Sequence record: PV636258.1
Source: a phage
Reading direction: 5' to 3' (one strand)
DNA length: 64,000 nt
Below are positions 61,671-62,629 of this stretch, one piece after another. The notes beneath the pieces are model-generated. The model did no database searches. It was not told the origin of the DNA and saw nothing but the letters and a program-made list of their open reading frames with translations. Position numbers and translations under genes: made by a program. Each line of letters starts with the position of its first letter. Positions within the stretch are counted from its first letter, which is position 1.

Positions 61671-61967
61671 ATGAAAGAGCAAGAAATTATCCGGCATTGT
61701 ATTCGCTTAGGAACATTAAAACCTCTCTATCAGGCTTTGCGTTTCAATGCCATTAAATTCAAACCTTTACCAAGAACTATCGCAACGTTCTTTGCCATGC
61801 GTTCTGTTGGAAAAACGATTTTCTTTGAGCATGACATTTATTTTTATACAAAGATTAATGGCGAAGATTTAGATAAAATGATTTTCGTGAACGACGATAA
61901 AAATATGAAGATAAAGGTGGAAAACGAATTGCGCAGGATAAATGATTCTTTAAGAGGAATATTTTAA
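61671..61967 (+). CDS. Hypothetical protein (98 aa)
   Basis: ATG-initiated ORF. Confidence 0.4.
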   Translation: MKEQEIIRHCIRLGTLKPLYQALRFNAIKFKPLPRTIATFFAMRSVGKTIFFEHDIYFYTKINGEDLDKMIFVNDDKNMKIKVENELRRINDSLRGIF

Positions 61968-62629
61968 TGGAAATTGTTGTCTCAATATCTGATTGTGATT
62001 TTGTATACCGTGTTCTTCAAGGGGATGCTCCATTGCCGGAGAATAATCAAGAAGTGACGTTGTTCTGGTCTGGTGGGGTGGATAGCACATACATGTTGAT
62101 TTGGTTGTTATCGAAAGGATATTCAGTTCATACTGTGTATTGCCACCTCGAAAATAATAAATTTAAATCTAAGCGCGAAAATTGGGCGAGGAATAAAATA
62201 TACAACTGGATTAATAAAAATGCCCCACTTCTCATGTATCGTTGGACACATCATCAAGAGCCTATCAGTAGCATCAACGTCCCGAACGGTGGTTTTCGCG
62301 CTTGTTTAGCACAAGCCCCGATATGGTTATTAAACACGCAATTTAAAGGCAGTGGCTTGCCGTCCACGTATATCTTGGCATATGTTAACGGCGATGACGC
62401 AATACACTGGATACCCGCCTTTAATAAAGTTATTGAAGGATACAACATGATGACCAGAGACGGGGAAAGACCTATTGAAATTTTATATCCATTGATTAGT
62501 CTCAAGAAATCTTGGTTCTATCATCACATGTCCCCAATACATGACTTAATGACATGGTGTGAATTGCCAATTTTGAAAAAGAATTGTGATTGCCCTGCCT
62601 GTGTTCGACATCGCCATGAGTTATCATAG
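61967..62629 (+). CDS. PP-loop ATPase, QueC-like
   Basis: PP-loop LFWSGGVDSTYML near N-terminus and C-terminal Cys cluster C-x8-C-x-C-x2-C (CELPILKKNCDCPAC); 220 aa. Confidence 0.5.
   Translation: MEIVVSISDCDFVYRVLQGDAPLPENNQEVTLFWSGGVDSTYMLIWLLSKGYSVHTVYCHLENNKFKSKRENWARNKIYNWINKNAPLLMYRWTHHQEPISSINVPNGGFRACLAQAPIWLLNTQFKGSGLPSTYILAYVNGDDAIHWIPAFNKVIEGYNMMTRDGERPIEILYPLISLKKSWFYHHMSPIHDLMTWCELPILKKNCDCPACVRHRHELS

Follow-up and report, generated by a model that had tools for sequence, protein, structure and literature searches.

What does a gene resembling queC do in a phage in which the other genes of 7-deazaguanine synthesis cannot be recognised? The question is raised by a locus in the phage sequence record PV636258.1, of which a stretch of 64,000 nucleotides (the window, below) was analysed. 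The window is from a Kuttervirus (Ackermannviridae; Vi01/CBA120-like); in the 3 kb around the gene, identity reaches 99.6% with Salmonella phage Chennai and exceeds 98% with many relatives. A first-pass annotation had taken the open reading frame (ORF) at 61967-62629 for a lone match to QueC, the synthase of 7-cyano-7-deazaguanine, because of its SGGVDS PP-loop and C-terminal Cys cluster, and suggested that it may depend on partners outside the window or on host enzymes, or act in a different pathway. We found that the protein belongs to the QueC superfamily (PF06508 sensu lato), that it almost certainly does a job other than that of QueC, and that it almost certainly puts no 7-deazaguanine into phage DNA. 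Our preferred reading, held with moderate confidence, is that this protein, a member of the PHROG 1550 subfamily, is an active adenylating enzyme that uses a substrate other than 7-carboxy-7-deazaguanine (CDG) and is linked to DNA or nucleotide metabolism; catalytic competence, the type of chemistry and the metabolic link are all predicted from sequence. The gene itself is as follows.

61967..62629, plus strand: QueC-like coding sequence, ATG start, 220 aa, a divergent QueC-superfamily PP-loop ATPase of PHROG 1550

The protein matches PHROG 1550 ("QueC-like") with E = 7.7e-82 over residues 1-219, far beyond chance, which confirms the ORF and its two motifs; the family label is an annotation and not a functional assignment. 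The Pfam QueC model PF06508 scores 23.9 bits against a gathering score of 22, over the P-loop only (residues 33-64), and ThiI, MnmA and ArgG score close behind QueC in this single-protein search. The NCBIfam QueC equivalog TIGR00364 reaches 18.4 bits against a cut-off of 150.3, over residues 33-58 only. A family profile was built from 19 close homologues and searched against 1.84 billion proteins at E <= 1e-3; this gave 1,141 cluster representatives (clusters at 50% identity), nearly all of about 200 aa, with an N-terminal SGGLDS and a C-terminal CE...CGxCxxC. All of the 83 relatives tested match PHROG 1550, and 77 of them match PF06508, weakly. Compared with solved structures, the family profile aligned over the full length with QueC 3bl5 (E = 1.9e-11) and with Cap9 (E = 7.3e-9), the QueC-like protein N-terminal deazaguanylase of type IV CBASS (PDB 9nto_B), whereas its best match to other PP-loop families (E = 4.8e-4) was confined to the P-loop. 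Thus, the full-length match to QueC and Cap9, as opposed to the P-loop-only match to the others, identifies the protein as a member of the QueC superfamily. The family was found only in phages: a search of 185,579 bacterial and archaeal species genomes, using one peptide pattern and the Kuttervirus query, gave 600 pattern matches, none of which was confirmed by tblastn. Cultured carriers beyond Ackermannviridae include the Ralstonia/Burkholderia jumbo phages RSL2, RSF1 and FLC6 and the Pseudomonas phages Noxifer and PA1C/PS119XW. Domain fusions were considered as a functional hint and discarded: the longer members (up to 462 aa) add only low-complexity acidic tails, and Pfam found one HTH_23 in 83 members.

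The conserved and the family-specific elements of the protein are located as follows.

61967..62050, plus strand: N-terminal extension, residues 1-28, with a helix at 9-17, in Ackermannviridae members
62069..62086, plus strand: PP-loop SGGVDS, residues 35-40, the ATP pyrophosphate-binding motif
62153..62179, plus strand: N63-N64...K67...E71, family-specific, in place of the QueC YxQxHxxE, of which Glu alone is kept
62381..62401, plus strand: Y139-V-N-G-D143-D144-A145, family-specific, where QueC and Cap9 have Y-x-D-C
62489..62509, plus strand: P175...K181, conserved Pro/Lys pair, matching QueC K165 and Cap9 PF(x)4K
62558..62602, plus strand: Cys4 cluster C198-E199-x7-C207-x-C209-x2-C212, at the alignment position of the structural Zn site in QueC and Cap9

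Both SGGVDS and the Cys cluster are invariant in the 19 homologues (55-65% identity), and the PP-loop, D143, K181 and Cys4 remain so across homologues that are roughly 25-30% identical. G37, D39 and S40 of the PP-loop are invariant in the 83 family members, and Y139 and D143 across the family. The N-terminal extension is absent from most of the wider family, in which SGG begins near residue 9. The Cys pattern, C-x8-C-x-C-x2-C, aligns with the Zn cysteines of 3bl5, with the spacing CxCxxC in Kuttervirus versus CGxCxxC in the wider family, and the protein is predicted to be zinc-stabilised through this site. The AlphaFold2 model has a mean predicted local distance difference test score of 83.9 and a predicted template modelling score of 0.85.

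It is in the substrate pocket that the protein departs from QueC. The canonical QueC signature was defined by Libby et al. 2026 (PMC13329287), and E. coli QueC cannot support the formation of Q-tRNA without any one of Y35 (YxQxHxxE), R99 (VPxRN), Y131 (YPDC) and Y189, the residue following the first Zn cysteine (PMC13329287). Y-x-D-C is the deazaguanine-binding motif of both QueC and Cap9 (PMC13279940); according to the structural papers on Cap9 and QatC, its Tyr and Asp, together with the Arg of RN, hold 7-deazaguanine, the YPDC Tyr stacking on it, the Asp reading its Watson-Crick edge and the RN Arg stacking on the base in Cap9. We made three independent comparisons: a hidden Markov model (HMM) alignment to 3bl5, 2pg3 and Cap9, column statistics over the 83 members, and a MAFFT alignment with canonical QueCs. 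All three agree that E71, D143, P175, K181 and the four cysteines are kept. YxQxHxxE has become (I/L)xNNxxKxxRE, with E71 as the sole survivor, and Y35 aligns with L61 (HMM) or N64 (MAFFT). Both the Arg and the Asn of VPxRN are gone, the region reading LxQxPxW, with the Arg aligned to Q116 (HMM) or a gap (MAFFT). There is no Y-x-D-C in the protein; the region reads YVNGDDAIHWIPA (YVNGDDAIHW), and in the MAFFT alignment the YPDC(RA) of a co-resident canonical QueC (see below) falls in a gap. An aromatic residue, W148, lies near the putative YPDC-equivalent region, but positions 150/151 carry no acid in Kuttervirus. The Tyr after the first Zn cysteine is replaced by E199. Hence, each of the four residues essential in E. 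coli QueC is substituted or deleted, and the comparison indicates that the phage protein, whose CDG/preQ0 signature has been lost, is not an isofunctional QueC.

A genuine QueC that converts CDG to preQ0 with the help of host FolE, QueD and QueE, and so boosts preQ0 and queuosine for the phage tRNAs or a low-level DNA modification, is nevertheless what several features recall. The Pfam score exceeds its gathering score, and the protein mirrors QueC in size (about 220 aa), in the position of the N-terminal SGGxDS and in that of the C-terminal Cys4, with E71 corresponding to E42 and K181 to K165. In addition, the tRNA-Asn(GUU) and tRNA-Tyr(GUA) of the phage are Q34 substrates in the host, and hosts supply CDG. 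Unlike QueC, however, the phage protein lacks YxQxHxxE, VPxRN, YPDC and Cys-Tyr and has CxCxxC in Kuttervirus versus CxxCxxC, it fails the TIGR00364 cut-off by 130 bits, the gene is not linked to queD, queE or folE, and the host has its own QueC. An informative case is provided by contigs of two uncultivated phages that carry, at a distance of about 7 kb from each other, both a canonical QueC and a paralogue from PHROG 1550 (L021, 423-1220 with 8004-8759; L042, 1428-2231 with 7998-8708; and L088). The canonical copies in L021/L088 and L042 have every motif (YGQKHxxE, VPNRN, YPDC, TCY...CGKCGSC), and the coexistence of the two genes argues that they are not redundant. It should be noted that no QueD, QueE, FolE or DpdA was detected within 10 kb of the canonical QueC of L021/L088, which may represent another kind of lone QueC. 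Together with the lack of DpdA and the normal dG in phage DNA described next, these observations make a genuine QueC very unlikely. Of the initial match to QueC, the PP-loop ATPase and the superfamily profile stand, whereas the identity as 7-cyano-7-deazaguanine synthase is not supported.

The absence of FolE, QueD, QueE and DpdA noted for the window holds: tblastn with the DpdA, FolE, QueD and QueE of phage 9g against the window and the whole CBA120 genome gave nothing better than E = 0.07. The suggestion of partners outside the window finds no support, as FolE, QueD, QueE, QueF and DpdA/TGT are not annotated in the complete CBA120 genome either, and phmmer detected no queD, queE, folE or dpdA partners in 79 viral loci, within about 8 kb on each side. 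The annotation had named two observations that would speak against its proposal; other deazaguanine genes are indeed not found, but no other PP-loop family gives a better match. Every phage known to carry 7-deazaguanines encodes DpdA (Hutinet et al. 2023, PMC10516641). Furthermore, liquid chromatography-mass spectrometry (LC-MS) of the DNA of ViI, CBA120, CBA6 and Vibrio phage 1.255.O revealed dA, dG, dC, dT and a single extra nucleoside, 5-NeOmdU (Lee et al. 2018, PMC5889632), and all four of these phages carry the QueC-like gene; this speaks against the idea of 7-deazaguanine DNA. We also considered, and rejected, a role in thymidine hypermodification: 5-NeOmdU has been rebuilt from a purified kinase, serine:DNA transferase and pyridoxal phosphate (PLP) decarboxylase alone, with no PP-loop enzyme needed, and the transferase gene persists without the QueC-like gene in LIMEstone1 and in most Taipeiviruses of Klebsiella. 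The best reading is that the QueC-like gene neither makes 7-deazaguanine DNA nor joins the known 5-NeOmdU hypermodification, and, of the options first proposed, action in a different pathway is favoured by the loss of motifs, the missing pathway genes and the absence of deazaguanine from DNA. The gene had been noticed earlier as an odd singleton (Hutinet et al. 2019), with its function left unaddressed there. Genes of the 5-NeOmdU pathway are present in the same window (29349-30551, 38735-39640 and 40182-41423), namely a ViI gp226-like PLP decarboxylase, a 5-hydroxymethyldeoxyuridine (5-hmdU) DNA kinase and a clade-2 aGPT-Pplase/serine:DNA transferase; the kinase, which is labelled "guanylate kinase" in CBA120, and the decarboxylase were assigned by synteny with CBA120 and ViI, and the transferase alone was searched.

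What the protein might do instead can be outlined from the elements that are kept. A predicted PP-loop (N-type ATP pyrophosphatase) enzyme, it retains what QueC and Cap9 have for handling ATP and as a scaffold (PP-loop, Asp, Pro/Lys pair and Cys4 Zn site), while the residues that bind CDG and make preQ0 have been replaced. Given this combination, the enzyme would most likely act on some other substrate, adenylating its carboxylate or carbonyl group and passing this to an amine or another nucleophile. Candidate substrates are nucleobases, small molecules resembling nucleotides, and peptide termini (the conserved polar N63, N64, E71, Q116 and Y139 would suit a nucleobase-like ligand), and the role would serve phage DNA or nucleotide metabolism.

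The proposed link to DNA metabolism comes from genomic context. We fetched 79 viral loci with relatives of the gene, in windows of about 8 kb on each side, and clustered their ORFs. Dereplication at 70% identity left 49 lineages, of which 36 have a marker of replication, recombination or nucleotide metabolism no more than 5 kb away; as the lineages lack phylogenetic independence, the link to replication modules is an association, not proof. A family-B DNA polymerase is present in 23 of the 49, usually starting 0-50 nt downstream of the QueC-like gene. A large set of uncultivated phages (100-365 kb contigs) shows the order SNF2 helicase, an ORF of about 120 aa, QueC-like gene, family-B DNA polymerase, the polymerase starting at a median of 4.5 nt past the QueC-like stop. 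Within this cassette in loci L027-L083 (for example, L064 7642-12650), the polymerase has about 1,230 aa, the ORF of about 120 aa has no family match, and a NUDIX protein is encoded about 4.4 kb downstream; no cultured representative of this phage group was found by tblastn. Another set of phages has a recombination arrangement of UvsX/RecA, FEN/RNase H, DnaB-type helicase and QueC-like gene. In a 358-kb phage, the gene stands directly upstream of topoisomerase II subunits, which in Kuttervirus lie 4 kb upstream of it; here the gene sits in the early/nucleotide-metabolism region, with topoisomerase II on one side and dCMP deaminase on the other. The neighbours in the cultured jumbo phages RSL2, PS119XW and Vibrio YC are mostly hypothetical proteins and uninformative; in Ralstonia phage RSL2 (L084), an ORF annotated as "phosphoheptose isomerase" is found about 4 kb upstream.

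Within Ackermannviridae, the gene is a dispensable accessory gene with a natural presence/absence polymorphism. The serine:DNA transferase was found in 379 phage records, including 19 of Dickeya and 45 of Klebsiella phages, and the QueC-like gene in 198 records (0 Dickeya, 7 Klebsiella). In LIMEstone1 (Limestonevirus), the block between topoisomerase II and dCMP deaminase is shrunk to three small ORFs. In the Taipeivirus Zahir, a Klebsiella phage, the locus is bounded by dexA (90% identity) and the phosphoesterase gene (52%) but is without the 98-aa ORF, the QueC-like gene and the 113-aa ORF, and the Taipeiviruses Menlow, 0507-KN2-1 and UPM 2146 carry the QueC-like gene. This stretch as a whole (window 58147-63862, compared with L168 LIMEstone1 and L169 Zahir) is a variable region of Ackermannviridae: Kuttervirus has about 14 ORFs there, Limestonevirus 3, and Taipeivirus another subset, one member of which is annotated as "phosphoheptose isomerase". 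The dispensability in Limestonevirus and most Klebsiella Taipeiviruses, together with the lack of a partner pathway, could be explained by a decaying or non-catalytic remnant kept as a structural or regulatory protein. Such a remnant is extremely improbable, as no ATP- or Zn-binding residue varies among the more than 1,100 clusters (50% identity), about 200 genomes carry an intact reading frame, the structure is predicted with confidence, and the protein was seen by mass spectrometry in phage Sajous1 (PMC10892097). The gene is thus conserved, intact and expressed.

The accessory distribution also bears on a possible relationship to anti-phage defence. PHROG 1550 could be the phage-side counterpart of the QueC-fold protein-conjugating enzymes Cap9 and QatC, i.e., an adenylating ligase that couples an acid with an activated carboxylate, CDG or another, to a protein of phage or host at its N-terminus, or else a counter-defence factor that depletes, diverts or intercepts host CDG and thereby acts against 7-deazaguanine-dependent immunity; CDG is needed by type IV CBASS (Cap9) and perhaps by QatABCD. 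Besides distribution, the structural ranking speaks for this, as does the "CE" at the first Zn cysteine, which is Cap9-like and unlike the "CY" of QueC (position 199 is Glu in 81 of the 83 members). The phage protein shows the Cap9 motifs CE(x)6CxxCxxC and PF(x)4K (C198-E199 and P175...K181), with a slightly different Cys spacing, and its core of about 190 aa is close to the minimal Cap9 of about 185 aa. However, Cap9 retains Y/FxQ(x)5E, RN and H(x)4YxDC, whereas the phage protein has no Q, RN or YxDC; the deazaguanine-binding Y115, D117 and R86 of Cap9 and its F/YxQ motif are not conserved. The Cap9 operon encodes a CD-NTase, Cap10/TGT-like protein and a substrate with an N-terminal Gly; the phage neighbours are small ORFs, dexA and a phosphoesterase, and none of the neighbours has the Met-Gly N-terminus typical of Cap9 and QatB substrates. 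Cap9 belongs to defence islands, whereas the PHROG 1550 gene is carried by virulent phages. No conserved partner protein emerged across lineages: the small ORFs (about 80-150 aa) that abut the gene upstream in many of them share no detectable homology, HMM iteration from the largest cluster recruited nothing new, and pairwise hhalign probabilities were all below 11%, so that a conserved small partner was rejected. The fixed polymerase synteny in 23 of the 49 lineages is likewise unlike a fast-evolving anti-defence gene. QatC (QatABCD, PDB 9vlk) also has the QueC fold, with the PP-loop and Zn site kept and the substrate pocket remodelled, but it has about 400 aa, essential N- and C-terminal extensions and its own set of motifs, compared with 220 aa here; the profile match to 9vlk is negligible (E = 0.97), and no QatA, QatB or QatD neighbours are present. 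On balance, we regard a Cap9/QatC-like or counter-defence role as unlikely.

Two further groups of enzymes were compared. The QueC of 7-deazaguanine DNA phages, exemplified by phage 9g gp06 (Gat-QueC/QueC), is a replication-module gene next to a DNA polymerase, as is the PHROG 1550 gene in many uncultivated phages; unlike the Kuttervirus singleton, gp06 has a canonical QueC domain within a full pathway (DpdA, FolE, QueD, QueE), and its BLAST match to the Kuttervirus protein covers the P-loop only (E = 3). YcfA (6-thioguanine synthesis), LarE and the ThiI/TtuA cores are matched by the profile in the P-loop only, and their Cys motifs, which bind Fe-S or act as sacrificial sulfur donors, are positioned differently from the phage Cys4. 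Another possibility is an RNA- or tRNA-modifying PP-loop enzyme of the TilS, ThiI, TtcA or MnmA type, acting on phage tRNAs or host RNA. Such an enzyme would fit the four tRNAs encoded in the window, and ThiI and TtuA are among the top structural matches, with weak Pfam matches to ThiI in 11 of the 83 members and to tRNA_Me_trans in 19. These matches are, however, limited to the shared Rossmann/P-loop core, the full-length match being to QueC and Cap9; there is no RNA-binding domain (THUMP, PUA or TilS C-terminal domains), the predicted pI of 7.65 is not strongly basic, and most lineages show a DNA replication context rather than tRNA clusters. We consider tRNA modification quite improbable. 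The tRNA cluster (window 25665-27359) comprises a Met-type/Ile2-type CAU tRNA and tRNAs for Asn (GUU), Tyr (GUA) and Ser (GCU); the first could be an Ile2 (lysidine) tRNA, and the third is annotated as Ile(gat), not Tyr(gta), in CBA120. That tRNA-Asn and tRNA-Tyr are queuosine-34 tRNAs in the host is a coincidence beside a "QueC-like" gene.

Returning to an adenylating enzyme of DNA or nucleotide metabolism with a non-CDG substrate, several points weigh against it. No PP-loop enzyme that has been characterised is matched by the conserved polar pocket residues N63, N64, E71, Q116 and Y139. In QatC, too, the substrate motifs of QueC are missing, and still CDG has been proposed by one group as what it uses (PMC13329287); by this precedent, motif loss alone does not exclude a 7-deazapurine substrate. 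LC-MS at the level of high-performance liquid chromatography would miss trace modifications. The association with replication modules may be inflated by shared ancestry, and the loci linked to the family-B polymerase may be a single large clade, while the Kuttervirus gene is not adjacent to a polymerase. Finally, the patchy distribution in Ackermannviridae looks more like that of an accessory or counter-defence gene than that of a replication function.

The gene is embedded in a tight order of 98-aa ORF, QueC-like gene, 113-aa ORF and metallophosphoesterase gene, with the following features around it.

60598..61230, plus strand: dexA-like exonuclease gene, conserved left flank of the QueC-like locus
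61597..61614, no strand assigned: G+C-rich hairpin with a T run, terminator-like on both strands, ending the upstream unit
61671..61967, plus strand: 98-aa ORF, no assigned function, translationally coupled to the QueC-like gene via TAATG
61951..61958, plus strand: Shine-Dalgarno-like AAGAGGAA, 8 nt 5' of the QueC-like ATG, read from the sequence
62632..62973, plus strand: 113-aa ORF, no assigned function, directly 3' of the QueC-like gene
62955..63533, plus strand: metallophosphoesterase ("Ser/Thr phosphatase") gene, conserved right flank of the QueC-like locus

In TAATG, the ATG of the QueC-like gene overlaps the stop of the 98-aa ORF. Since the hairpin closes the preceding unit, the QueC-like gene is the second gene of a unit that starts at 61671; the hairpin has a perfect 7-bp G+C-rich stem (AAGCCCCGAAAGGGGCTT) between T and A runs, and a TATAAT box follows it at 61625-61630, shortly 5' of the 98-aa ORF. 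The true start of the metallophosphoesterase gene is likely 62973, as annotated in CBA120. The QueC-like gene corresponds to CBA120 orf028/gp024, whose product is 98.6% identical; RefSeq labels it "QueC-like queuosine biosynthesis", and other records have "alpha hydrolase" or "hypothetical". In PM10, ST-W77, KE28 and other near-identical phages, window 61000-64000 aligns as two pieces, about 3,450 bp versus 3,001 bp, which indicates an insertion or deletion of about 450 bp among close relatives. For the medium subunit of topoisomerase II, the longest ORF (56691..58103) shares 80 nt with the gene of the large subunit (window 54857-58103); CBA120 annotates a later start, and the true start is probably downstream of 56770. 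A search of the literature on Kuttervirus transcriptomics gave nothing useful.

These results have consequences for annotation and for the biology of the family. The automatic label "QueC-like queuosine biosynthesis", carried by about 200 Ackermannviridae genomes, wrongly implies 7-deazaguanine DNA or queuosine production, and several of the labelled phages are candidates for therapy or biocontrol. PHROG 1550 is a large QueC-fold subfamily, found only in phages, whose pocket is remodelled and which is strongly tied to replication modules; it comprises more than 1,100 clusters (50% identity), and the QueC superfamily survey of 2026 does not describe it. The natural presence/absence pairs within one genus make its function directly testable. 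Should the less probable counterpart of Cap9 and QatC prove true, such a ligase would place a carboxylate, nucleobase-like or other, on DNA or on the N-terminus of a protein, or would intercept host CDG; the effect would be either to regulate the replication machinery of the phage or to disarm immunity that depends on 7-deazaguanine (type IV CBASS, QatABCD), and the phage enzyme would belong to a new class, possibly with a new mechanism of anti-defence. Over the last two years, the QueC fold has been shown to be repurposed twice for protein modification in anti-phage defence; its viral branch is therefore a reasonable place to seek new modifications of nucleotides, DNA or proteins.

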